Of a DNA stretch of 64,000 nucleotides, positions 5,460 to 55,732 are shown piece by piece. Where the stretch lies: positions 907 through 64,906 of the forward strand of contig JAAESG010000001.1 in NCBI GenBank assembly GCA_024229615.1. Reading direction: 5' to 3'. Every line of letters begins with the position of its first letter. Position 1 is the stretch's first letter. The DNA comes from Gammaproteobacteria bacterium. Its GTDB lineage: Bacteria > Pseudomonadota > Gammaproteobacteria > GCA-001735895. A model generated the notes under the pieces. The model did not search any database and was not told the origin of the DNA. It worked only from the letters and a program-made list of their open reading frames with translations. Made by a program: the position numbers and the translations under genes.

Positions 5460-5570
5460 TGAAGCCAGCGCCGGCTGGCTCACATTTCATGTGGCGTATA
5501 GCGTTGTATTTATGAGCCGTTTCGGGCCAGGGATTCGTGGGGAGATTTCACTGAATCCGATGCGGATTGC

Positions 5571-5751
5571 TAGCCTGCATATTGCATCAGCATCACGGAT
5601 GCTGACGCCGGACAGATGCGGCTGAACGCCGGGCTAGGGTTCAGGCCGGTTATAAATTGCACAGTCTCATTTGGTAGGAAAACCATCGATTAATCTTTCA
5701 TATTCAATGGATTATGACAAGGCTTGAGACCGACTGGTGAAATATTCAGGC
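5571..5751. repeat. MITE-like element, family 1, copy 2 (TAGCCTGCATATTGCA ... TGAAATATTCAGGC)
   Basis: Terminal inverted repeats and internal sequence homologous to 564-823 and, in reverse complement, to 13018-13146. Sits between the convergent aspC-like and VOC genes. Confidence 0.6.
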
Positions 5752-5820
5752 TCGGTGCTATTGCCTGAAATTGCGATGAACGGGTCTGATGCCAGCAGTC
5801 AAGCCTGGAATTCCTCCGCC

Positions 5821-12046: not shown

Positions 12047-13018
12047 TTGAAGCCAGTACTGGTAGTACAAGGGGCGCAGCAGATAGCTGACGTACCTCGA
12101 CTCGAGGAAATAAACGATCAGGTTGAACTGCGTTTCGCGACCACGGAGGATGAATTACGTGGAGCCTTGCCCGGCGCCGAAGTATTGCTGGGTTGGAACT
12201 TTCGCGCCGGTCTGCGCGCCGCCTGGAATAGCGCCAATGATTTACGCTGGATCCATTGGGCTGGAGCCGGGGTTGACGCCGCACTGTTTCCCGAACTGGT
12301 CGAAAGTAAAGTTCTGCTGACCAACGCGCGGGGGGTGTTCGATGTCCCAATGGCCGAATGGGTGCTTGGCATGACGCTTTGTTTTGCCAAGAAATTCCCT
12401 CAAAGCCTCGCTTTCCAGGCACGGTCCGAGTGGAATCACCGGCTTTCGGAATGCATAGCTGGAAAGCGTGTGCTGGTAGTCGGGGTAGGATCGATCGGGC
12501 GTGCGGTCGGACGCCTGTTGCGTGAGGCGGGTATGCAGGTCGAAGCCGTCGGACGCAGTGCGCGTGATGGCGATGCGGATTTTGGCCACGTCTATGCCGT
12601 GGATGAACTGCACGCGCGCCTGCCGCTTGCCGACTATGTGGTATTGATAACACCGTTAACGCCCAAGACGCGTAATCTCTTTGCTGCGGCTGAATTTGCC
12701 GCGATGGCGACCCATGCCCGATTCATCAATATCGGACGCGGTGCGCTGGTCGTGGAGGATGCGTTACTCGCCGCCCTGCACAACGGAGACATCGCGGGTG
12801 CCGCCCTGGATGTCTTTGTGAATGAACCCCTGGCTGCGGACAGCCCTTTCTGGACAGCGCCGAATTGTCTGGTTTCGCCGCATATGTCAGGTGATTATGC
12901 CGAGTTCGAAGAGGCTATGGCTGATCAGTTCATGACGAATTGGAACCGGTACAGACAGGGTAAGGCGCTCAACAATATCGTCGATAAAAACCTGGGTTTT
13001 GTGACAGGTTCGAACTAG
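12047..13018 (+). CDS. D-isomer-specific 2-hydroxyacid dehydrogenase, NAD-binding
   Basis: GVGSIGRAVG Rossmann motif and catalytic R/E/H pattern of the family. TTG start; stop TAG overlaps the first base of the downstream MITE. Confidence 0.8.
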   Translation: MKPVLVVQGAQQIADVPRLEEINDQVELRFATTEDELRGALPGAEVLLGWNFRAGLRAAWNSANDLRWIHWAGAGVDAALFPELVESKVLLTNARGVFDVPMAEWVLGMTLCFAKKFPQSLAFQARSEWNHRLSECIAGKRVLVVGVGSIGRAVGRLLREAGMQVEAVGRSARDGDADFGHVYAVDELHARLPLADYVVLITPLTPKTRNLFAAAEFAAMATHARFINIGRGALVVEDALLAALHNGDIAGAALDVFVNEPLAADSPFWTAPNCLVSPHMSGDYAEFEEAMADQFMTNWNRYRQGKALNNIVDKNLGFVTGSN

Positions 13019-13146
13019 CCTGAATATATCACCAGTCGGTCTCAAGCCTTGTCATAATTCATTGAATATGAAAGATTAACTGAAGGTTTTTATGCTCAGC
13101 GAGACTGTGCAACTTGTGACCGGCCTGAGCCCTATCCTGGCGCCGG
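13018..13146. repeat. MITE-like element, family 1, copy 3 (partial, inverse orientation, lacks the second terminal inverted repeat)
   Basis: GCCTGAATATATCACCAGTCGGTCTCAAGCC... is the reverse complement of the 3' half of copy 2; similarity ends near 13146. Confidence 0.55.
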
Positions 13147-31501: not shown

Positions 31502-31641
31502 TGACTCCTGGTTTGTTATTTTCGGAAAGCTCTGTGTAAGTCATGACGACATTGCAGAGATTCCTCAGGTTTTAAGGAAAGGCGCAGTGTAATGCAACAA
31601 ACAGCCTCTTTGCCATTCGCCGGTCCACCTGTCGGCGTGGC

Positions 31642-33126
31642 TTAGGCCTGAATTTTTTCGCGACCGATTCGTAGTACGCTAGCCAACAAACCTTCGATGT
31701 GTTCGGCGCGGGTGGCGTGGTTCATGATGCATACGCGCAGTACCGGTCTGCCCTGCACCTGGGTAGCCGACATCAGGTAATCGCCTTCGAGCTGGATTTG
31801 ATCACGGATTGCGGTGTTCAAGTGGTCGATACTGTCATCGTCGAGGCCGTCAGGACGAAACCGATAACAGAGGATAGACAGCTGTGGCGCGACGACGAGT
31901 TCAAGATCATCTTCCGAACGGATCAATTCGGCAAGGTACTCGGCGCACTGCACATTATGCAGCGCGTTGCGTCCGAGTGTCTCCATCCCGTAACAGCGTA
32001 GCGACATGTAAAATGGCAAGGCGCGAAAACGTCGCGACAACTCGGGAGCCAGGTCATAAAATCGATACTGCTCGGGCGTGTCTTCTTCGCTGGCGCGCAG
32101 GTAGTCCGAATTCTCGAAGAAAAGCTGGCGTGCCGAACTGGCGTCGCGGTATAGCAGCAGGCTGCCTCCCAGCGATTGGTAAAACCATTTGTGCATGTCC
32201 ATGGTGACCGAATCCGCCTTTTCAATGCCACGGTAACGTGGTCTCAGCTGCTCTGACATCAATCCACCGCCGCCGTAAGCCGCGTCGACATGTAACCAGA
32301 TATTGTGCGTGGCACAAAGTTGGGCGATATCATCCAGTGGATCGATTGCACCTGTATTCGTGGTACCTGCGGTCGCTGCCACGCAGACAACATTACTGTT
32401 TTCTGCGATGGCCTCCTCCAGCTTGTCGATACGCATGCGAAATTCAGCATCGGTATCGACGGGGATTATATTGTCTGTACCGACCCCGAGCATAACCGCG
32501 GCGCGCCGGATCGAGAAATGCGCCGCCTGTGAACAAATAATCACCGGTTTTGCCGACTGGCTGAACGCGGCCAATCCTTTTTTGCGATATTCAGGCCCAA
32601 AACGTTTTGCCAGGGCGCTCGCGATACCGGACATATTGGCCATGGAACCGCCGCTGAGGAAGATACCTTCGGACTGTGCCGGGAAATTCACCAGATCGGC
32701 GAGCCAGCGGATCACCGTTTTTTCGATCGTGGTGCCCACCGGAGAAGCCCAGTAACCACCGAGGTTTTCGTTTAACACGCTAACCATGGCGTGTGCCAAT
32801 GGATCGCTCGGTAAACCCGATGGCGCGATCCAGCCGAAGAATCCGGGGTGTGTGTTGCGTCGCGGGTATTGTCTGTTTGCGTCGCTAATCTGGGCCACTA
32901 ATTGTTCCAGCGAGTCACCGCCCAGCGGGTAGGATTGATCGATGAGTTTGGCGACATCCGTGGCTATAGAAGGACGTACGATCGGCGATTCACAGCGTTG
33001 CTGGATCAGCGGCGCCAGCAATGCCGATATATCGACATCGGCTGCACGGGTCAGATCATCTGCGGGTTCGAGATGGGGGCGATGCGGTCGGGTCATTGAC
33101 AGATGTACTGGTCCAGCAAGGCGCAA
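31642..33126 (-). CDS. PLP-dependent group II decarboxylase (aromatic-amino-acid / L-2,4-diaminobutyrate decarboxylase family)
   Basis: S-x-D-x-HKW PLP-lysine motif (DMHKW) and fold-type I architecture. Start uncertain. Confidence 0.8.
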   Translation of the reverse strand: MRLAGPVHLSMTRPHRPHLEPADDLTRAADVDISALLAPLIQQRCESPIVRPSIATDVAKLIDQSYPLGGDSLEQLVAQISDANRQYPRRNTHPGFFGWIAPSGLPSDPLAHAMVSVLNENLGGYWASPVGTTIEKTVIRWLADLVNFPAQSEGIFLSGGSMANMSGIASALAKRFGPEYRKKGLAAFSQSAKPVIICSQAAHFSIRRAAVMLGVGTDNIIPVDTDAEFRMRIDKLEEAIAENSNVVCVAATAGTTNTGAIDPLDDIAQLCATHNIWLHVDAAYGGGGLMSEQLRPRYRGIEKADSVTMDMHKWFYQSLGGSLLLYRDASSARQLFFENSDYLRASEEDTPEQYRFYDLAPELSRRFRALPFYMSLRCYGMETLGRNALHNVQCAEYLAELIRSEDDLELVVAPQLSILCYRFRPDGLDDDSIDHLNTAIRDQIQLEGDYLMSATQVQGRPVLRVCIMNHATRAEHIEGLLASVLRIGREKIQA

Positions 33127-33281
33127 GCGGTGTCGAGTCGGAATTCATTGTCGCATGGGAATCGCGTCGAATAAATCAAAACCTGGACTCTTGCTAATCG
33201 AAGAACTGTAGCCCCGACTTTGCTGTTGTCTGCTTGCAGTTAGCTTTCAACAGGTAAGCGGAGCCAGGCCACATCGTCGTT

Positions 33282-34490
33282 TCAGTCCTCGACGAGGTGG
33301 CCGTAATGTTTGTAAAACAGACGCAGCCAGAAGGGTGTGAGCAGAGTTGTGTAGGCGATGACGATAACCACAGTGGCATAGATTTCGTGGTTGAACAGCC
33401 CGGTATGACGGCCAATCTCGGCGAATACCAGGCCGACCTCACCGCGTGGCACCATGGACATTCCGATGATGATACGACGCGCGAGTTTTTCTCGAATCAG
33501 CAATCCTGCGAGAACTTTGGAGAGGATCGCCACGCCGGCGAGGGTTACAGAAAATATCCAGAAAAAAACCGAACTCAAATCCAGCGAACTCAAATCCAGC
33601 GACAGCCCGACCGTGACAAAGAAAACGGGTGTGCACAGCTGAATCACCGGTTTCATCTGGTTGTGTACGCGAGATGAAAATTCCGGATCAGCTTTAAGCG
33701 CGACACCGAAAGGAAGAAAGAAGCGGCGCGACAGCGCGAGCCCAGTAGCAAAACCACCGAGCAATTGCGGAATCCCAATGGCATGCGACAACCAGGCCAT
33801 GAAAAGCACCAGCGATACGATTGTAGTCGGGACCATGCCGGGAGTTTCGCTGACCGACTCCCAGCGATTGATGACGTAACTGATCGTCTTCGCCATTGCC
33901 GGTGCGACCATGAAGAAAACTGCCATGAACAGCAGGATTTTCGAGGTGCCAATCAGGTCTACCGAGCCGCTGGTAATGAAATTGAACAGAATCGCCAGCA
34001 GCAGTACGCCCATGATATCGTCCAGTACTGCAGCGCCCAGGATGATGTGCCCCTCGTGGCTCTGGTCGCGGTCGAGGTCGGTCAGGGTTCGCATGGTAAT
34101 ACCGATACTGGTTGCGGTCATGGTTCCCGCAATGAGTAGCGAGACCAGGAATTCGAGCTCGAAGCCGTAATAGCTGATCGTGAAACAACTCGCAAACGGT
34201 AGTAAAAATCCTGCGATTGCAACGATGACAGATTTGGTCCCGGCGCTTGCGAGCTCACCGATATCGGTCTCCAGCCCGACTTCGAACAACAGCAGGATGA
34301 TGCCGATTTCAGCCAGCACCCAGATCAATCCATCGGCTTCGATGAAGCCTAGTAGTGACGGTCCCAGGATAACCCCGGCAATAATTTCACCGATCACCGT
34401 GGGTACTTTAATATAAGCCGCCAGTTCGCCCATGACGCGTGCGGCGATCAGGATCATCGCGACTTGCAAAATGGTCGTCGAAGTATCCAT
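33282..34490 (-). CDS. monovalent cation:proton antiporter (CPA family, Kef/NhaP-like)
   Basis: N-terminus MDTSTTILQVAMILIAARVMGELAAYIKVPTVIGEIIAGVILGPS typical of CPA antiporters; 12-13 TM helices. No Shine-Dalgarno sequence upstream. Confidence 0.8.
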   Translation of the reverse strand: MDTSTTILQVAMILIAARVMGELAAYIKVPTVIGEIIAGVILGPSLLGFIEADGLIWVLAEIGIILLLFEVGLETDIGELASAGTKSVIVAIAGFLLPFASCFTISYYGFELEFLVSLLIAGTMTATSIGITMRTLTDLDRDQSHEGHIILGAAVLDDIMGVLLLAILFNFITSGSVDLIGTSKILLFMAVFFMVAPAMAKTISYVINRWESVSETPGMVPTTIVSLVLFMAWLSHAIGIPQLLGGFATGLALSRRFFLPFGVALKADPEFSSRVHNQMKPVIQLCTPVFFVTVGLSLDLSSLDLSSVFFWIFSVTLAGVAILSKVLAGLLIREKLARRIIIGMSMVPRGEVGLVFAEIGRHTGLFNHEIYATVVIVIAYTTLLTPFWLRLFYKHYGHLVED

Positions 34491-34774
34491 TAGTGGTCAT
34501 TCAAGGTGATAATGACGGGTGCAGAGCGTTCCAGGTGCTGTGGGACAAGTGATGCGGCATCCCGACGCAGTCCGAAGGGAAGACCCAATGCATTCGCTGC
34601 GCTCATGGAGCCGGTCCTGGCATGCCCTTTCCAAGGATTGCAACGCTGTACCACGCCAACCAGGACGCTCCCTTCGGGCGGGCAGCAAAACGGCCATTCG
34701 CCGCGTTGCGTCTTTTGCCAAGGGATGGGCCATTGTCTGCAAGACGCGCCTTGCGACTGACTGCTTTGCTTCAT
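34490..34774 (-). CDS. candidate 94-codon upstream ORF translationally coupled to the antiporter (stop TAA overlaps the antiporter ATG as TAATG)
   Basis: GAGGGG Shine-Dalgarno sequence 6 nt before ATG (complement of 34772-34774). Protein MKQSSQSQGASCRQWPIPWQKTQRGEWPFCCPPEGS...VIITLNDH, Trp/Cys/Pro-rich, no recognised family. May be fortuitous within a repeat element. Confidence 0.3.
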   Translation of the reverse strand: MKQSSQSQGASCRQWPIPWQKTQRGEWPFCCPPEGSVLVGVVQRCNPWKGHARTGSMSAANALGLPFGLRRDAASLVPQHLERSAPVIITLNDH

Positions 34775-34809
34775 GCTGAACCCCTCATTATTACCTTGAA
34801 AGACCACTA
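34491..34809. repeat. 319-bp element bounded by a 26/30-nt imperfect terminal inverted repeat (TAGTGGTCATTCAAGGTGATAATGACGGG / CCCCTCATTATTACCTTGAAAGACCACTA)
   Basis: Inverted repeat seen directly. The element fills the entire gap between the antiporter start codon and the adjacent MITE. GC-rich interior with open frames on both strands. Confidence 0.55.
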
Positions 34810-34962
34810 GGGAAGCTCTGCATAAGTCATCCTGACTTAGCAGAGCACGAAAAACGCAAAATGCGATTTTTCGTTTTTCTTCATTTTTCAATCACTTGTG
34901 TGATCGAAAAATGGCGGCACATCCCTGTGCCGCAGGAATCTCTGCATTTTGCAGAGATTCCC
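34810..34962. repeat. MITE-like element, family 2, copy A (terminal inverted repeats GGGAAGCTCTGCA / TGCAGAGATTCCC, TA flanks); contains a nested perfect 27-nt palindrome GGAATCTCTGCATTTTGCAGAGATTCC
   Basis: Terminal inverted repeats read directly. About 85% identical to 54356-54428 over the shared 73 bp; the extra 90 bp is an internal insertion. Its last 3 bp (CTA) form the stop codon of the metallophosphoesterase gene. Confidence 0.6.
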
Positions 34963-35582
34963 TAGCTATACAGCATGCTGAAATTCCAGCATTTGACGAT
35001 ATTCTGGTTTCCGAGTGCGTATAGTTTCACGCTGAGGTCGGGTAGCGACAGTATCATACAGCTGTGATTGAAAACCGAACTTCCCGGGTTGACCACAAAA
35101 ACACCTCCGAGTTGTTCAGCATAGACCTGGTGGGTATGGCCGACAATCAGTACGTCGTAGTCAAAGTCGGACAGATTCTGGTGCCAGACATCTCTTTGTT
35201 GCTCGATAATCTGACCCTGCTGATCGAGCAGTTTTATACCGCCATGTTGTTCGCTGGGCGGGTTGGCGTGAACCACGAATACGCGCTTCTGCTCGATCGT
35301 CAAATCCAGTGTTTGCGGTAACGTCCGTAAGTAGTTGCGAGTCGACTGATCGCCTTCGAGTGAAGCCTTTTGCAGCCAGGATTGATCGTGGTTACCGACG
35401 ATTACCTGACAATTTGCCGAAGTCAGCAGTTCGATCGTCGGCAGCAGTGTGTCGTAGTAGCCGGCAATGTCACCCGCGCAGATAATTTCGTCGACGTTTT
35501 CTCGCCTGAAGATTTCAAGTGCCTGGCCGAGTGGGCCGGGGCTTGAATGTACGTCACTGATGAGTCCGACGGTGGTTGTCAT
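34962..35582 (-). CDS. metallophosphoesterase (YfcE-like calcineurin-fold phosphodiesterase)
   Basis: GLISDVH, GDIAGY, GNHD and HTH metal-binding motifs. Stop codon lies in the MITE terminus. Confidence 0.8.
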   Translation of the reverse strand: MTTTVGLISDVHSSPGPLGQALEIFRRENVDEIICAGDIAGYYDTLLPTIELLTSANCQVIVGNHDQSWLQKASLEGDQSTRNYLRTLPQTLDLTIEQKRVFVVHANPPSEQHGGIKLLDQQGQIIEQQRDVWHQNLSDFDYDVLIVGHTHQVYAEQLGGVFVVNPGSSVFNHSCMILSLPDLSVKLYALGNQNIVKCWNFSMLYS

Positions 35583-35622
35583 TTGTTTTTACGCAATCTC
35601 CTGGTTAGGCCAGAGGGAGTTT

Positions 35623-36231
35623 CTAGCGTGAAAGCTGGCGATTTTCGTTGGCGTCCCGCCGTTCCCGTTTCCTCGCGTGTATCTCGGCCTGCGGTTTCCA
35701 TTGGTAACTGGAATCTTCCAGCGTGTTTGACCAGAATAACTCTCCACCCCGACGCCAGGGATCAAGCACCAGTCCCTGATAAAGTGAATTTCCGCGGGCG
35801 CTGATAATGACCGTACTATGCTCGAGACGAAAGGTGGTTTCGTAGTTAGCGATTCCCCAATGCAGGTCGAGGCTGTGAAACTGTTCCTGCTGCAATCGGG
35901 TCAGCAGATCCGAGGTCCAGTGGACGCAAAGGCCGCGCGGTTTGACGCCCAGGTTGACGAGCAAATTGTGAAATACCGGTGAACTCGATATTTCATATTC
36001 GTGCGCCAGCCGCCGGGTATATTCGATCGAAATCCGTGCCGCACGCTGGGCCTCGCTCGCATCGATATCTTCGCCGAGTGCGAGAATGGAGTGATTCAGG
36101 TCGCGGATGCGTTGCTGCTCAAGCAGCGGCGGTAGCTCGGGTTGTGGTTTTGTACTCGCACAATTTGTCTGCAACGCCATGACCAGAGTCAGGCAGCAAA
36201 TCTTGCATAGATTTTGAAATTCGTAGCGCAT
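35623..36231 (-). CDS. hypothetical secreted protein / lipoprotein
   Basis: N-terminal hydrophobic segment with Cys (LVMALQTNCAS). No family recognised. Confidence 0.45.
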   Translation of the reverse strand: MRYEFQNLCKICCLTLVMALQTNCASTKPQPELPPLLEQQRIRDLNHSILALGEDIDASEAQRAARISIEYTRRLAHEYEISSSPVFHNLLVNLGVKPRGLCVHWTSDLLTRLQQEQFHSLDLHWGIANYETTFRLEHSTVIISARGNSLYQGLVLDPWRRGGELFWSNTLEDSSYQWKPQAEIHARKRERRDANENRQLSR

Positions 36232-36348
36232 CGGATATTCAGCTATTCAGATCGATAAAGGTATCTCAGCCAGCGGTAATTTGTCGAGCGATTGTCAGGA
36301 TAACTCTGATACACTGCGGCTGACCTGTAATTCCGCATCGATCTTGAT

Positions 36349-37287
36349 ATGACCAGTTTAACCGAGCGCCTGGACAATAAGGAAATTCTGCTACTCGATG
36401 GTGGTGTCAGTACCGAGATCCGCCGGCGTGGTATTGCTCTGGATAAAAACGTCTGGAGCGGCCTGACCACCAAAACTCACCCGGATGATGTGCGTCAGGT
36501 CCACCAGGACTATATTCAGGCAGGCGCGCAAATCATTACCGCCAATACCTACTCGACGGCACGCCACGTACTGGAAAGCATTAATCTGGGCCATGAATCC
36601 AAGTTGATCAATCTGAAATCGGTGCAACTGGCACAACAGGCACGCGACAATGTGGCGCAGCGAGATGTATATATTGCTGGATCTATGTCGAGTATGCCGC
36701 CATTGACGAGTCATCGTGAAGTCGCGATCGACGGTCAGATTGAATCCAGCTACATGGAACTTGCGCAAGGGCTTGCCGAAGCCGGCGTCGATCTGATCAT
36801 TGCTGAAATGATGCGGGATATCGAAAATGCGAGCATTGTGATCAAGGCGGCGGTATCGACCGGGTTACCGGTCTTTATTGGATTTAGTGCGATGCTGGCT
36901 GAAAACGGAGTCGATGTACGCAGCCTGCGCTGGAAGAATACCGACGATACCACCAGCGCTCACGACTTTAGTGATATGGTCGATGCGCTTAAACCCCTCG
37001 GTGGGCATGCTGCTGGCATCATGCATACCAGGGTAGAAGACATCGTTCCGGCACTCGAAGTGTTAAAACAACACTGGTCCGGCCCCTTGCTTGCCTATGC
37101 TGAAACCGGCAAGCTGGTGTTGCCCGACTGGCGCTACGAGGAAATCAGTTCCCCCGATAACTATGCAAGCGAAATCGACAGCTGGATCGAAAACTTTGGC
37201 GTGCAGATCGTAGGAGGGTGCTGCGGCACGGGCCCTGAACACATTCAGGCATTGAGGCATCTGCTGGACCAACGCAGCAGCAATTAA
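36349..37287 (+). CDS. mmuM: homocysteine S-methyltransferase
   Basis: LLDGGVSTE N-terminus and zinc-binding GGCCGTGPEHI C-terminal motif. Confidence 0.8.
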   Translation: MTSLTERLDNKEILLLDGGVSTEIRRRGIALDKNVWSGLTTKTHPDDVRQVHQDYIQAGAQIITANTYSTARHVLESINLGHESKLINLKSVQLAQQARDNVAQRDVYIAGSMSSMPPLTSHREVAIDGQIESSYMELAQGLAEAGVDLIIAEMMRDIENASIVIKAAVSTGLPVFIGFSAMLAENGVDVRSLRWKNTDDTTSAHDFSDMVDALKPLGGHAAGIMHTRVEDIVPALEVLKQHWSGPLLAYAETGKLVLPDWRYEEISSPDNYASEIDSWIENFGVQIVGGCCGTGPEHIQALRHLLDQRSSN

Positions 37288-37388
37288 TAGCGATCGAATC
37301 CGTTTCCGTGGCGCAAGCTGACATGGGTCAGTAAAAGCCATTGATCGGCCGCTAGAATCATCTACCAGATTCAATTAACGGAAACCAA

Positions 37389-38582
37389 GTGTCAGAAAGC
37401 ACTCTTGATACCAAAAAAGTAACGCGTGCTGCATTGTTGGGCCGTGATTATCGTGGGGTCAAATTTGAGCTGCTTTGCCGGGAGGGTGACGAAGTCGGCG
37501 CCGGCGATGCGGTGATGCGTGATCTGCGCCGCCCGGCTATCAAGTTTGTGGCTCCGGTATCCGGCCGGATAGCCCGTATTGACAGGGGAGCCCGACGCAA
37601 ACTGATTTCGATGCAAATAGATATCGACGATTCAGTGCCGGTGGCCGGGGTGGAACCACCGGCTGATAACAAGACTGATACATTGCGCAGTTTCATGCTC
37701 GAGTCGGGCGCCTGGAGCGCGTTACGCACGCGACCATTCGGGAATATCCCGGGTCCCGACGGCGAGCCTGCCGCGATATTTGTAACCGCGTTGGACAACG
37801 ATTCTTATGCGCCTCGAGCGTGCCAGATCATCGATTCACGAATGGATGAATTCCGCGCTTCGCTTGAGGTTCTCGCGGATATCAGCACTGCACCGTTATA
37901 CCTTTGCCACGCTCCCGATCATAGCCTCGCGTTCGCGGATTCCAGCAAGATTCGCTGCGTACCGTTTAGTGGCGGATATACGGCCGGCTTGCCCGGCTTC
38001 CATATCAACCGCCTGGCACCGATCGGATTTGCCGGCCGGGAAGTCTGGCACATGGGTTATCAGGATGTGATTGCGCTAGGACATTTGTTAGTGCATGGCA
38101 AACCCTGGTTGCATCGCGTTATTTCGCTAGCCGGTAGCGCTGTCCAAAATCCTCGCAATCTGTGCGTGGTGCCCGGCGCCGCAAATGATGAATTACTCGA
38201 AGGTGAGCTTGCCGATGGCCCCAACCAGATTCTGGCGGGATCCCCGCTATACGGTCGCCCTCTCGACACAGGGCAGTCTTTCCTGGGTGCCGGGCAGCGC
38301 CAGCTCAGCGCACTGCTCGGGAAATCCGAAGAATCTGGCAAGTCGGACGGGGTCGGTACGATAATCCCGAGCGACAGACTGGAAGCGGCGTCACCGCCGG
38401 GCATCTACCCGGTGCCGTTGATGCGTGCATTGCAACTCGGCGATGCCGAACGTGCGCGCGAACTGGGTGCCCTGGAACTGGTGGAAGAGGATTTGTCACC
38501 GCTTAGCCTGGCCTGCGTTTCAAACAGCGACTATGGGTCGCTGCTGCGTGCGGTGCTCGAGCAGATCGAGGCGGCACGCTAG
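37389..38582 (+). CDS. nqrA: Na+-translocating NADH:quinone oxidoreductase subunit A
   Basis: Alignable to NqrA (...WSALRTRPFGNIPGPDGEPAAIFVTALD..., GALELVEEDLSPLSLACVSNSDYGSLLR). Confidence 0.9.
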   Translation: MSESTLDTKKVTRAALLGRDYRGVKFELLCREGDEVGAGDAVMRDLRRPAIKFVAPVSGRIARIDRGARRKLISMQIDIDDSVPVAGVEPPADNKTDTLRSFMLESGAWSALRTRPFGNIPGPDGEPAAIFVTALDNDSYAPRACQIIDSRMDEFRASLEVLADISTAPLYLCHAPDHSLAFADSSKIRCVPFSGGYTAGLPGFHINRLAPIGFAGREVWHMGYQDVIALGHLLVHGKPWLHRVISLAGSAVQNPRNLCVVPGAANDELLEGELADGPNQILAGSPLYGRPLDTGQSFLGAGQRQLSALLGKSEESGKSDGVGTIIPSDRLEAASPPGIYPVPLMRALQLGDAERARELGALELVEEDLSPLSLACVSNSDYGSLLRAVLEQIEAAR

Positions 38583-44687: not shown

Positions 44688-46012
44688 CAGGCGTTCAGTT
44701 CTTGCAGGGCGTTGTCAATCGCCATTAGCGCTGTATCGGCATCCGTTTGCGAGAATACCAGCGGCGGCCGTAGCTTCAGTATCTGATCATAGCGACCCGA
44801 AGTGCCGGTAATGACGCCCTGCTCGACGATGAGACTGCCCAGGTGGCGCATTTGCTGCTCGGAAAGTGGTTCCCTGGTATCGGGGTCGGATACCATGTCG
44901 AGCCCCCAGAACAAACCACAACCCTGGACATCCCCGATCAGCGGGTGGCGTTCAGCGAGCTTACGCAATCCGGCCTCGAGATAGGCGCCGGTTTCCTGGG
45001 CGTTCTGCAATAACCCATCGTTGTCGATGACCTCGATGACCGCTTTGCCGACGGCGGCCGAAACCGGGTTACCGCCGAAGGTGTTGAAGTAATGGTACTG
45101 ACGCGAGTAATTGTTGGCGATCTCTCGGCTCGTGGCCATCAATGAAAGTGGGTGTCCAGCGCCCATGGGTTTGCCGCAGGTCAGGATATCGGGCTGCAAA
45201 GCGTAGAAATCACTGCGCCACCAGTTTTGACCGCTGCGGCAATAACCGGACTGAACTTCGTCAGCAATCACCAATCCCCCGCGCTTGCGGATTTCGGCGC
45301 AAAGCCCGAGCACATAATCGGATGGTGGTGACAGGGGACCATTGGAGTCCCAAACCAGATCGATCATTACCGCCGCTGGTTTATATCCTCGCTGCTCAAG
45401 CCCGTCGAGCGCCCGCCGGGCCAGTTGCAGATATTTTTCTCCGGCCTTGGGATCGTCGCGATGATAGGGCCCGCGATATAGGTTGGGCGGTTCGATCACG
45501 GCCAGCCAGTCGGGGCGATGCTCGGGAGGATAACTGTGTGTCGACAGGCGTCGAGTCAGTTCGGAAACACCGTGATAAGAGGCTTCGGTGACGACTATGC
45601 CCTGGTTGCCAGTGACGTGACGCGCAATTTGCGTGGCCAGGTCGTTGGCTTCACTACCGGTACAGGTAAACACACAGCAATCAATATCGCCGGGCATTTT
45701 ATCGACCAGCATTTCTCCCAGTTCGACGATACCGGCATGCAGATAGCGGGTATGGGTGTTGAGCGTGGCTGCCTGCTTGCAGAGCGCATCGACGACATGG
45801 GGATGGCAATGTCCGACCGAAACCACATTGTTGTAGCAATCCAGATACTGGCGCCCTGCCGCGTCCCACAATCGAGTACCCGAGCCGCGTACCAGGTGGA
45901 GTGGTTCATCGAAAAAGTTTTGATAGGTGGGGGCGAGGGTCGCCTTACGCCGAGCAATCAGTTGCTGATCATGCATGTTATGTACTTTACGGGCTGAATC
46001 CGTCAATTTCAC
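44687..46012 (-). CDS. class III PLP-dependent aminotransferase
   Basis: DEVQSG...R.G and PLP-lysine TCGKPMG motifs; 441 aa. Confidence 0.85.
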
Positions 46013-46024
46013 TTTGAAAGAACA

Positions 46025-46912
46025 CTAGGATTCAATTTTAATTTTGGTATCGCCACCTAGCACCGGTTTACTCAGATGGATAGACATGCCTTCCGCCGCA
46101 CAGACGCTACGCGTGGGTGCTCGATGGGATTTAAGGTATTTCTCGTTTTCGATCTGAATTTCATCGAGTTCGGAATCGCTGCGATCAGGGTCGTGGTGAA
46201 ACATGACCAGGGTGCCTACCTCGGCATCACTGGCCAGTTGTCGAACCTGTGAAATCAAGCTATGCCCCCATCCGTGCTTGTGTGGCATGTCGTCTTCGAC
46301 GTACTGGGCGTCGTGAATCAGTACGTCGACACCCTGCAGGTAATTGACCCACTGGTCATAGTTGGTGCTCTGAGCATAGGGTGGGTCGAGCTCGTTGTCG
46401 GTAACATAGGCGCAAGTGACGCCGTTTTCATTGATCATGTAAGCAACGCCACCGCCAGGATGATTGAGTGCCTGCTTGGCCACCTTGATACCTTCGCGTT
46501 CATACATCTCACTTTCGATCCCCTTGAATTTCGGAATGTTGTTCGATGGCAGATCCTCAACTTTTACCGGGAAGTGAGTGCCATCCATTTGCCGGAACAG
46601 CGTATTGAATAGCTTGCGTCCGGACTCCATGCTGATATAGACATTGATATCGCGGCCGGTTTGATAAATAGGTGCGAAAAACGGGTAACCCTGGATATGA
46701 TCCCAGTGACCGTGTGATAGCAGGATATTGACGTGTGTCGATTTCTTCGCGAGTTTGTTGCCGAGCATGCGAATGCCGGTTCCGGCATCGAGGATCAGAT
46801 CATTGCCGCTTTCGAGTTCGATATGAACGCAGGAAGTGTTACCACCGTATTTTACGGTCTGTGGCCCGGGTACCGAGGTAGAACCACGCACGCCATAAAA
46901 TGTGATGATCAC
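46025..46912 (-). CDS. MBL-fold metallo-hydrolase
   Basis: HGHWDH zinc-binding motif. Confidence 0.8.
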   Translation of the reverse strand: MIITFYGVRGSTSVPGPQTVKYGGNTSCVHIELESGNDLILDAGTGIRMLGNKLAKKSTHVNILLSHGHWDHIQGYPFFAPIYQTGRDINVYISMESGRKLFNTLFRQMDGTHFPVKVEDLPSNNIPKFKGIESEMYEREGIKVAKQALNHPGGGVAYMINENGVTCAYVTDNELDPPYAQSTNYDQWVNYLQGVDVLIHDAQYVEDDMPHKHGWGHSLISQVRQLASDAEVGTLVMFHHDPDRSDSELDEIQIENEKYLKSHRAPTRSVCAAEGMSIHLSKPVLGGDTKIKIES

Positions 46913-54355: not shown

Positions 54356-54428
54356 AGGAATCTCTGCAAGATCGTATTTTGTGTTTTTCTTGCTCTGCTG
54401 GGTCAGCACGACTTATGTAGAGCTTTCC
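54356..54428. repeat. MITE-like element, family 2, copy B (73 bp; terminal inverted repeats AGGAATCTCTGCA / TGTAGAGCTTTCC, TA flanks)
   Basis: About 85% identical to the outer parts of 34810-34962. Its last base is the first base of the dctM-family stop codon (CTA on the plus strand). Confidence 0.55.
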
Positions 54429-55732
54429 TAAGATGTCATAAGAGTCGGCAGATAAAGTGCTATGGCGGGGTAGGCCGTTATCAACACAATAGCGACGGCA
54501 ATCATGAAAAAGAACGGTAGTGCGGCCTTGGCAACATAAATAATATTTTTACCGGTCAGGGATTGAATCACAAAAAGATTGAATCCGACCGGTGGGGTAA
54601 TTTGCGACATTTCAACCACCAGTACGAGAAAGATACCGAACCAGATGGTATCGATCCCGGCCTGTGTCACCATCGGCAATACCACGGAAGTCGTCAGAAC
54701 GATGACAGATATACCATCGAGAAAACAGCCCAGCGCAATAAAAAATACCGTCAAGCACATGATTAGCTGAATCGGCGATAGGCCGAGTGACGCGATCCAC
54801 TCGGCGAGTGCGTTAGGAATGCCGATAAAACCCATCGCCAGGGTTAAGAAGTGCGCGCCCACTAGAATTAATCCAAGCATGCATGAATTTTTCACCGCGC
54901 CGGTCACGCTACTGACAAAACTGGAAAAGGCGAAGCTGCCCAGTAGCATGGATAAAACCAGCGCTCCGATTACCCCGAATGCCGCGGCTTCGGTGGGCGT
55001 CGCGATGCCCTGATAAATTGAACCCAGCACGCCACCAATCAAAAACATGATCGGAATCAGTTTTTTAAACGCGATTATCTTTTCAGCGAATGAATAGCTG
55101 ATGTCGTCAACGACGCCACCGGATTTACCTTTTATGATCGACCATACGACGGTGTAGCACATGAATAAAAGAATCAGAATCAAGCCAGGCAAAGCCCCGG
55201 CCAGAAATAAACGCGCGATTGAAACTTCGGCGGCAACACCGTAAATAATCAGGATGATCGACGGTGGAATGAGCAGGCCCAAAGTCCCTGAGCCAGCCAG
55301 GGTTCCGATTGCCATCGAGTCATCGTAGCCTCGCTTTGACAGTTCAGGTAATGTCATGCGCCCAATGGTAGCTGCGGTTGCCGCGGATGAGCCCGAGACC
55401 GCGGCAAAGATACCGCAACTCAGAATATTGACGTGTAACAATTTACCGGGAAGTTTTGACAGGGTCGGGGACAGACCTTCAAACAGGTCTTGTGATAAAC
55501 GCGTGCGAAACAGGATTTCGCCCATCCAGATAAATAGTGGCAGTGCGGTGAGTGACCAACCTGTGGTTGCACTCCACGACGAGGTGCCGAGCAATAAACC
55601 GATGCTGCCATTATCGATTAACTTAAGCCCAACGATTGCGAGCCCGGTTAGTGTCAAAGCGACCCAGATGCCGCTGGTTAACATCAGGAACATGCAAACG
55701 ACCAGGATTCCGCCAATCAATGTCATATCCAT
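54428..55732 (-). CDS. TRAP transporter large permease (DctM family)
   Basis: 434 aa, about 12 TM helices, DctM-family signature segments. Confidence 0.9.
   Translation of the reverse strand: MDMTLIGGILVVCMFLMLTSGIWVALTLTGLAIVGLKLIDNGSIGLLLGTSSWSATTGWSLTALPLFIWMGEILFRTRLSQDLFEGLSPTLSKLPGKLLHVNILSCGIFAAVSGSSAATAATIGRMTLPELSKRGYDDSMAIGTLAGSGTLGLLIPPSIILIIYGVAAEVSIARLFLAGALPGLILILLFMCYTVVWSIIKGKSGGVVDDISYSFAEKIIAFKKLIPIMFLIGGVLGSIYQGIATPTEAAAFGVIGALVLSMLLGSFAFSSFVSSVTGAVKNSCMLGLILVGAHFLTLAMGFIGIPNALAEWIASLGLSPIQLIMCLTVFFIALGCFLDGISVIVLTTSVVLPMVTQAGIDTIWFGIFLVLVVEMSQITPPVGFNLFVIQSLTGKNIIYVAKAALPFFFMIAVAIVLITAYPAIALYLPTLMTS

Follow-up and report, generated by a model that had tools for sequence, protein, structure and literature searches.

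A MITE-like element, probably of an undescribed family, lies flush against a cation:proton antiporter gene in a gammaproteobacterium

What is a long, inverted-repeat-bounded segment doing directly against the start codon of a transporter gene? The question arises in the 64,000-nucleotide stretch of Gammaproteobacteria bacterium contig JAAESG010000001.1 analyzed here (hereafter, the window), in which a gene for a CPA2-type cation:proton antiporter begins immediately after a 319-bp segment that carries its own open reading frame (ORF). An earlier note, made from the letters of the window, proposed a structured, translation-coupled leader dedicated to the antiporter, and offered as an alternative a third type of miniature inverted-repeat transposable element (MITE) with a fortuitous ORF. 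The alternative turns out to be essentially right: copies of the segment are scattered, and the ORF is not conserved among them. Specifically, the 319-bp segment is probably a copy of an undescribed MITE-like family, 240–320 bp long with terminal inverted repeats of ~34 nt, that inserts at rare CTAG/CTAA sites and is not antiporter-specific; translation of the antiporter would be coupled through it. Read 5' to 3' on the strand of the genes, the parts of the element are as follows.

34491 to 34809, minus strand: MITE-like non-autonomous element, 319 bp, defined by its inverted-repeat boundaries and by full-length alignment to the copies L013, L017, and L021
34807 to 34810, minus strand: left CTAG, putative target copy, common to the neighboring MITE's own CTAG duplication
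34776 to 34809, minus strand: 5' terminal arm, holding an in-frame GTG (34807-34805) and a Shine-Dalgarno (SD)-like GAGGGG (34786-34781)
34490 to 34774, minus strand: 94-codon ORF, from ATG 34774-34772 to TAA 34492-34490, overlapping the antiporter ATG 34490-34488 as TAATG
34685 to 34769, minus strand: hairpin 1, stem GCAAAGCAGTCAGTCGC / GCGAATGGCCGTTTTGC, with a conserved apical region
34666 to 34679, minus strand: conserved junction segment GCCCGAAGGGAGCG, a CCC…GGG mini-hairpin
34524 to 34670, minus strand: hairpin 2 in its long form, ~78 nt longer than in the short-form copies L002 and L021
34546 to 34568, minus strand: nearly invariant 23-nt block GCGTCGGGATGCCGCATCACTTG, including the 11-bp perfect palindrome GATGC-C-GCATC
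34491 to 34524, minus strand: 3' terminal arm, ending …GACCACTA, with the antiporter ATG immediately after
34490 to 34493, minus strand: right CTAA, putative target copy, whose TAA is the stop of the element's ORF and whose last A doubles as the A of the antiporter ATG (TAATG)

The earlier note described the bounding inverted repeat as 26 complementary bases in 30. The repeat is there, and it is longer: the two arms (34491-34524 and 34776-34809) are 34 nt each and complementary at 30 of 34 positions (88%). A 25-nt arm consensus matches the window at the two arm sites only, and it matches none of 100 shuffles. Against its own family profile the 319-bp element scores E=4e-81 (nhmmer), and it lies in sense orientation relative to its flanking genes. 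The GAGGGG SD, the ATG at 34774, the 94-codon ORF, and the TAATG overlap were all placed correctly in the earlier note, which was right, too, that the antiporter has no SD of its own: no purine-rich stretch precedes its ATG (…CCTTGAATGACCACTA and then ATG).

The distribution of the family carries most of the argument. Related copies exist at seven loci besides the window copy, three of them from one sister-assembly series that also holds the window locus. Copy sizes range across the family from 240 to 320 bp, and the full copies are those of the window, L013, L017, and L021.

L017: full 281-bp copy, filling the tatA-tatB spacer of a hisI-hisE-tatA-tatB operon (L017 1395-2128)
L013: full 279-bp copy, upstream of a molybdopterin oxidoreductase gene
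L021: complete 240-bp short form, between two unrelated genes
L001-3: partial copy, between a DedA/VTT gene and an SLT/ProS pair, encoding the predicted protein P0002
L008: fragment, between an FMN reductase gene and a DUF3750 gene
L022: 5'-cut partial copy on a JGI contig
45990 to 46027 of the window, minus strand: solo terminal-arm remnant, 28/35 identity, a weak nhmmer match (E=0.11-0.37)

The genes downstream of or adjacent to the copies encode the CPA2 antiporter, TatB, a molybdopterin oxidoreductase, a DUF3750 protein, or an unannotated 238-aa protein, or there is none; among the loci found, no copy other than that of the window adjoins an antiporter gene. Every copy is in sense orientation relative to some adjacent gene. 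The L017 copy ends …CACTA directly before the ATG of the native tatB start (MFDIGF…) and is spanned by a 93-codon, GTG-initiated frame; an alternative in-frame ATG lies in its 3' arm, 10 codons upstream of tatB. The P0002-encoding copy at the DedA/SLT locus has no 5' arm and is ~78 nt shorter internally. At the solo remnant, the TAG is the stop of an MBL-fold gene (46025-46912), and the likely ATG of the next gene lies ~16 nt downstream.

The copies other than the remnant and the P0002 locus came from two kinds of search. Exact scans with 20-mers from the near-invariant block, made against 185,579 species genomes and a metagenome collection, gave one fragment (L008) in the species genomes and two full copies (L013, L017) in the metagenomes. 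Seven of the eight species-genome matches were judged to be chance, including those on GC-rich actinobacterial and myxobacterial contigs. The metagenome matches L016 and L019 were rejected as coding …GMPHH… motifs, and L014, L015, L018, and L020 match the 20-mer alone. L021 and L022 emerged when 1.84 billion representative proteins were searched exhaustively with a profile. No copy was found in the viral contigs scanned, and blastn against plasmids and phages returned no match to the element.

The ends of the copies, and the sites at which they lie, resemble those of a MITE. Terminal inverted repeats of 33–39 nt are present in every full copy (window, 34 nt, 88%; L013, 39 nt, 90%; L017, 33 nt, 94%; L021, 35 nt, 91%). 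L021 is flanked by a perfect CTAG on both sides (…atat-CTAG-TGGTC…GACTA-CTAG-tgtt…), and the window copy by CTAG…CTAA. A precedent for this target exists in MITEPsy1, a documented MITE that duplicates a 4-nt CTAG or YTAA (PMC3189936). The copies carry no transposase: they are small (240–319 bp), and the product of their sole ORF contains no Pfam domain. Separately, the element's terminus TAGTGGTCT (34801-34809) is identical to 9 nt of the end of ISPsy24, TGTAGTGGTCTAATG…, of the IS3 family (PMC3189936); this may be chance, and we mention it as a lead only.

CTAG is scarce in the window. It occurs 45 times against ~247 expected (ratio 0.18, a five-fold depletion), and CTAA (0.28) and TTAG (0.34) are depleted as well. 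Eight of the 45 CTAGs supply the TAG stop of an ORF of 150 aa or more; several others flank small repeats. The CTAG beside the element is a gene's stop codon in four copies, namely the window copy (metallophosphoesterase gene, the later MITE set aside), the 45990-46027 remnant (MBL-fold gene), L021 (259-aa gene), and L022 (convergent gene). CTAG is thus both scarce and often coincident with TAG stops, and the copies therefore sit at gene boundaries.

The window copy allows the insertion history to be proposed step by step from the genes and the second MITE that surround it.

33282 to 34490, minus strand: gene for the CPA2-type cation:proton antiporter (Pfam Na_H_Exchanger, E=1.8e-62), whose start codon abuts the element
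34811 to 34961, minus strand: neighboring IS5/MITEPsy1-like MITE, 151 bp, with ends GGAAGCTCTGCA… / GGAAGCTCTG… and a CTAG duplication at 34807-34810 and 34962-34965
34962 to 35582, minus strand: upstream metallophosphoesterase gene, whose TAG stop is the TAG of a CTAG

The 319-bp element would have landed at a CTAG/CTAA within the stop/start overlap (…AGC-TAATG-GAT…) of the metallophosphoesterase and CPA2 antiporter genes. Following insertion, the upstream stop would have been the TAG of the left CTAG, and the antiporter ATG would have stood flush with the right end. The IS5-type MITE would subsequently have inserted into the left CTAG; it used the C+TAG at the left edge of the 319-bp element and is therefore the later arrival. 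Conceptual removal of both elements would restore …AGC-TAATG-GAT…, an ordinary stop/start overlap of the two genes.

A sister-strain contig, L004, is the one sister strain compared, and it carries both insertions. Over window positions 31777-37588 it is 98.9% identical to the window, with no indels and 64 clustered mismatches; the clustering resembles a mosaic or recombination pattern. The longest mismatch-free run, 916 bp, covers both MITEs and the adjacent gene ends. The 100% identity of the two elements across strains that diverge by 1.1% overall is not significant, as the mismatches are clustered and 15.6% of intervals of the same length are also clean. Purifying selection has continued to act on the antiporter gene since the element inserted: 20 of the 29 differences between the strains, both of which carry the insertions, fall at its third codon positions. 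Thus, the earlier note's statement that the antiporter's expression signals now reside in the element holds for its translation signals, which lie inside the element in front of a gene under purifying selection; that the element is dedicated to the antiporter does not hold.

How, then, might the antiporter be translated? Folding of the minus-strand transcript gives -139.2 kcal/mol (z = -3.85 vs shuffles), and, as the earlier note had expected, in the predicted terminal helix the SD region is base-paired to the 3' end, next to the stop/start overlap. Of the six frames through the element, that of the ORF is the sole one without a stop. It extends upstream to the element's first GTG (34807-34805), making 105 codons, and is open even from a TTG inside the neighboring MITE, giving a 133-aa ORF. 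In both copies that lie flush with a genuine start, those of the window and L017, the one frame of six without a stop spans the element between the 5' GTG and TAATG (P ~0.016 and ~0.037 against shuffles, respectively). L021 likewise has no stop between GTG and the terminal TAG, and the GTG there forms a TAGTG overlap with the upstream stop; the frame is closed in L013, a copy that does not abut a genuine start. Taken together, the frame from GTG to the terminal TAR is fully open in three of the four full copies, and the length from GTG to the terminus is a multiple of three in all four.

The proposed sequence of events is the following. The element would be co-transcribed with its neighbors, and its transcript would form a highly stable fold of three helices, in which the element's SD is buried and against which the antiporter start lies. 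Ribosomes would load on the element's frame (at GTG 34807 or ATG 34774) co-transcriptionally, ahead of synthesis of the 3' arm, translate through the element while unwinding the fold, stop at UAA, and re-initiate at the overlapping AUG. Because the antiporter lacks an SD, the SD of the element is buried, and the fold abuts the start, ribosomes reading the element's frame most likely are those that translate the antiporter. Coupling of this kind is plausible from sequence. The earlier note's suggestion of reinitiation at TAATG is reasonable, given that the same junction and an element-spanning open frame recur at tatB in L017, and it is the dedicated leader built upon it that does not survive. 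Many bacterial MITEs carry contiguous ORFs, some reported to be co-translated with upstream genes (PMC2229807), and so an open frame through the element has precedent. The arrangement resembles termination–reinitiation at UAAUG in that the element's ORF ends on the start of the antiporter gene, and on that of tatB in L017, with a downstream gene that has no SD of its own. It differs in that the upstream "cistron" would here be a non-conserved frame through a mobile element.

Several points weigh against reading the segment as a MITE-like element with coupled translation. The flanks are degenerate in L013 (CTCG/CTTA) and L017 (CCAG/CTAA), and a CTAG duplication is indistinguishable from two extra bases of inverted repeat because CTAG is its own reverse complement. 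No autonomous insertion sequence with matching ends was found in the window, plasmids, or phages; with neither an autonomous partner nor an empty site recovered, we infer mobility from distribution and anatomy. The family has a low copy number, as judged by 20-mer scans within the near-invariant block, and it is atypical in that its internal loops are conserved while its arms turn over, whereas ordinary MITEs conserve their terminal repeats most. As for coupling, the argument draws on two independent junctions (the window/L021 lineage and L017). The frame of L021 is open despite its downstream gene having an SD of its own, and openness may therefore be a trait of a lineage rather than a response to position. 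Finally, as regards transcription of the antiporter, no sigma-70-like promoter was found in 34300-35100, and the neighboring MITE has a terminator-like hairpin.

A different interpretation, compatible with mobility, concerns what the structure is for. Specifically, the mobile element could carry a functional structured RNA or folded single-stranded DNA (ssDNA) module, in which the three-helix junction and the 23-nt loop block are under selection for protein binding, for processing (e.g., by RNase III), or as a recombination substrate. The structure would then be functional and not a by-product. One fold is indeed common to all full copies: a ~33-bp terminal helix, hairpin 1, the CCC…GGG mini-hairpin, and hairpin 2. 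In a three-sequence alignment, pairing holds in 92.6% of cells, and both sides have changed in 52 of 109 pairs, a value that none of 500 shuffles reaches and that compares with 7–12 in slid controls; in helices 2–4, such double changes number 16 among 34 pairs. Stem sequences differ almost completely between copies with pairing retained, and the apical and junction segments are conserved. The 23-nt block with its GATGC-C-GCATC palindrome is identical in five copies from different sources (window, L013, L017, L002, and L008). Two invariant, complementary heptamers, GCAACGC in the apical region of hairpin 1 and GCGTTGC in that of hairpin 2, could pair together, with no covariation between them. 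The uniform sense orientation of the copies relative to an adjacent gene also favors such a module.

Against such a module stand the following observations. The block has one change in L021 and lacks 15 nt in L022. RNAalifold pairs include 20 G·U vs 7 A·C (P=0.02), a count from a method that favors G·U; in a Watson-Crick-only fold the trend is opposite, with isolated mismatches more often A·C than G·U. Sense and antisense strands have equal folding energies. The two strands thus fold alike, neither being favored consistently by the kinds of mismatch, and the pairing may matter in RNA or in DNA. A compensatory reading of the L021-vs-L002 differences in hairpin 2 was rejected after an arm-by-arm comparison, in which they proved to be single-arm changes. 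Near-perfect stems of 20–39 bp are typical of DNA palindromes, and template-switch correction of quasi-palindromes is an established mutational mechanism that yields apparent compensatory changes without selection. The kept pairing could thus be due to arm-to-arm quasi-palindrome correction during replication, to selection on folded RNA or ssDNA, or to both. No Rfam 15 covariance model matches the element at E<=1 (window, L017, and L008 copies), and none reaches gathering level anywhere in the window. The architecture is superficially like that of a retron noncoding RNA, but no reverse-transcriptase gene is present among the flanking genes (antiporter, phosphoesterase, tatA/tatB, oxidoreductase). 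On balance, we regard a selected module as unlikely.

A further step would be to view the whole element as "translationally transparent", that is, as a mobile element built to live inside operons. It may land on CTAG/CTAA stops such that its first GTG overlaps the upstream stop (TAGTG), and its length may keep that GTG in phase with the terminal TAR. The open frame may then allow ribosomes to pass, to unwind the structure, and to be handed over to the downstream start (TAATG). On this proposal the junction and the 23-nt block, instead of being a by-product, may form a module that functions as RNA or ssDNA, such as a substrate for processing, protein binding, or transposition. We offer this as speculation and consider it quite unlikely; the multi-helix fold, which is conserved, and the possibility of a translation-transparent design merit mention, though few copies underlie them.

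Far less survives of the leader first proposed for this locus, a cis-regulatory RNA of the riboswitch or attenuator kind dedicated to the cation:proton antiporter. The stable fold that pairs the SD region with the stop/start overlap, an upstream ORF whose stop overlaps the antiporter start, and an antiporter with no SD of its own are what such a leader would look like. All other copies, though, adjoin different, unrelated genes and never an antiporter, truncated and solo-arm copies exist, and a check of Rfam for a riboswitch or leader gave no match to any curated RNA family. Compared with riboswitches and gene-specific leaders at large, the element has a covarying secondary structure, a pattern that DNA palindromes should show as well, and it lacks the constant association with one gene family or pathway. 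The claim of a dedicated, translation-coupled leader fails, with copies at unrelated loci and an ORF that is not conserved, the very outcome that the earlier note had itself named as speaking against it. We hold a dedicated leader to be extremely improbable.

Could the 94-codon ORF instead be a genuine small-protein gene, its Trp/Cys/Pro/Arg-rich product translationally coupled to the antiporter? The open frame has an SD and an ATG, related ORFs are annotated as genes in other assemblies (P0002, P0003, and P0005), and copies differ in length by 78, 36, and 15 nt, all multiples of three. The earlier note recognized no family in the peptide, and this is borne out: no Pfam domain is recognized in it, and a search of 5.8 billion protein clusters gave two matches only, namely the peptide itself from the sister strain (L004) and P0002. 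Substitutions at the three codon positions number 10/10/10, 22/31/22, 13/20/16, and 39/45/42 in comparisons of copies, with no position bias. L013 has four stops in the window's ORF frame; in L017 the open frame is a different one with respect to the conserved block, which it reads as VGMPHHL and the window as RRDAASL. The similar peptides simply mirror nucleotide similarity, and the element encodes no conserved protein. With flat codon-position counts, stops and frame changes in other copies, few relatives, every one accounted for by similarity at the nucleotide level, and a candidate gene that consists of long palindromes, we give the small-protein gene next to no credence. Two sets of candidates were discarded along the way. 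The tandem-repeat proteins P0004, P0006, and P0007 (1352–3213 aa) were judged spurious, their scores against the peptide profile having been summed from 4–13 weak stretches (e.g., …HGDWPFLRPPERVPEGPV…); an antisense ORF with one in-frame TGA was dropped, as it is present in the window and L013 and not in L017.

Comparison with described repeats helps to place the family. MITEPsy1 of Pseudomonas syringae, derived from IS5/ISPsy2 (PMC3189936), is likewise non-autonomous, has terminal inverted repeats, inserts at CTAG/YTAA with a 4-nt duplication, and resides in a gammaproteobacterial host. It differs in being 100 nt long, with GGAAGG… ends and a known parent insertion sequence (PMC3189936), whereas the ends of the 319-bp element read TGGTC…, its length is three times as great, two long hairpins lie in its interior, and no parent was found for it. 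MITEPsy1 is far closer to the neighboring MITE (34811-34961) than to the 319-bp element. The Correia, or NEMIS, elements of Neisseria (PMC2229807) share TA termini, inverted repeats of ~24–26 bp, positions next to genes, and co-transcription. Their long transcript hairpin affects the neighboring mRNA, with RNase III proposed to act on it, and one size class has contiguous ORFs (PMC2229807). Yet Correia elements are 107–155 bp long with a single hairpin, hundreds of copies, and conserved ends (PMC2229807), while the present family, compared by description and not by sequence, is 240–320 bp long, folds into several branches, has a low copy number, and conserves its loops while its arms vary.

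Other parallels are looser. The ERIC/IRU and YPAL repeats of enterobacteria and Yersinia (PMC2229807) are also palindromic repeats in transcribed operon spacers; they differ in being 127–168 bp long, with short terminal repeats and a single stem-loop, and no stop/start overlap at both ends is described for them. The CIR repeats of Caulobacter and Brucella (PMC2229807) resemble the element in having two long inverted-repeat arms and a linker, a short conserved loop motif, and a phylogenetically conserved secondary structure. They differ in length (~110 bp), in the lack of a terminal inverted repeat closing the arms, in a motif that is a GANTC methylation site, and in stops in all six frames (PMC2229807).

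The window holds further small repeats, likewise flanked by CTAG. The neighboring 151-bp MITE has three internal hairpins and, at 34914-34933 on the gene strand, its terminator-like hairpin with a T-run; the stretch at 54368-54430 (84% over 63 nt) and another around 31524-31564 are partial copies of it. Two copies of a 65-nt repeat, 95% identical, are found at 564-628 and 5571-5635; the copy at 5574-5633 sits between the CTAGs at 5570 and 5634 and is probably another very small CTAG-targeting element. A repeat of ~125 bp occurs in two inverted copies of 86% identity (5627-5752 and 13017-13142), one of which ends at the CTAG at 13015, the TAG stop of a 323-aa ORF.

What does the locus teach? 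A long helix, an SD, an upstream ORF, and a TAATG junction before a transporter gene can mimic a dedicated leader; here, they are probably the footprint of a mobile element landing on stop codons. The scarcity of the CTAG target and its frequent coincidence with stop codons provide a simple rule for elements that lie flush against genes. The "hypothetical proteins" of 79–105 aa annotated on these elements should be treated as spurious. From marine-type gammaproteobacterial sequences, an undescribed MITE family would be added, one of unusual anatomy, in which the three-helix architecture and the loops are conserved while the arms turn over. Coupling, if real, would illustrate how an operon can accommodate a highly structured insertion between two cistrons, even between tatA and tatB.

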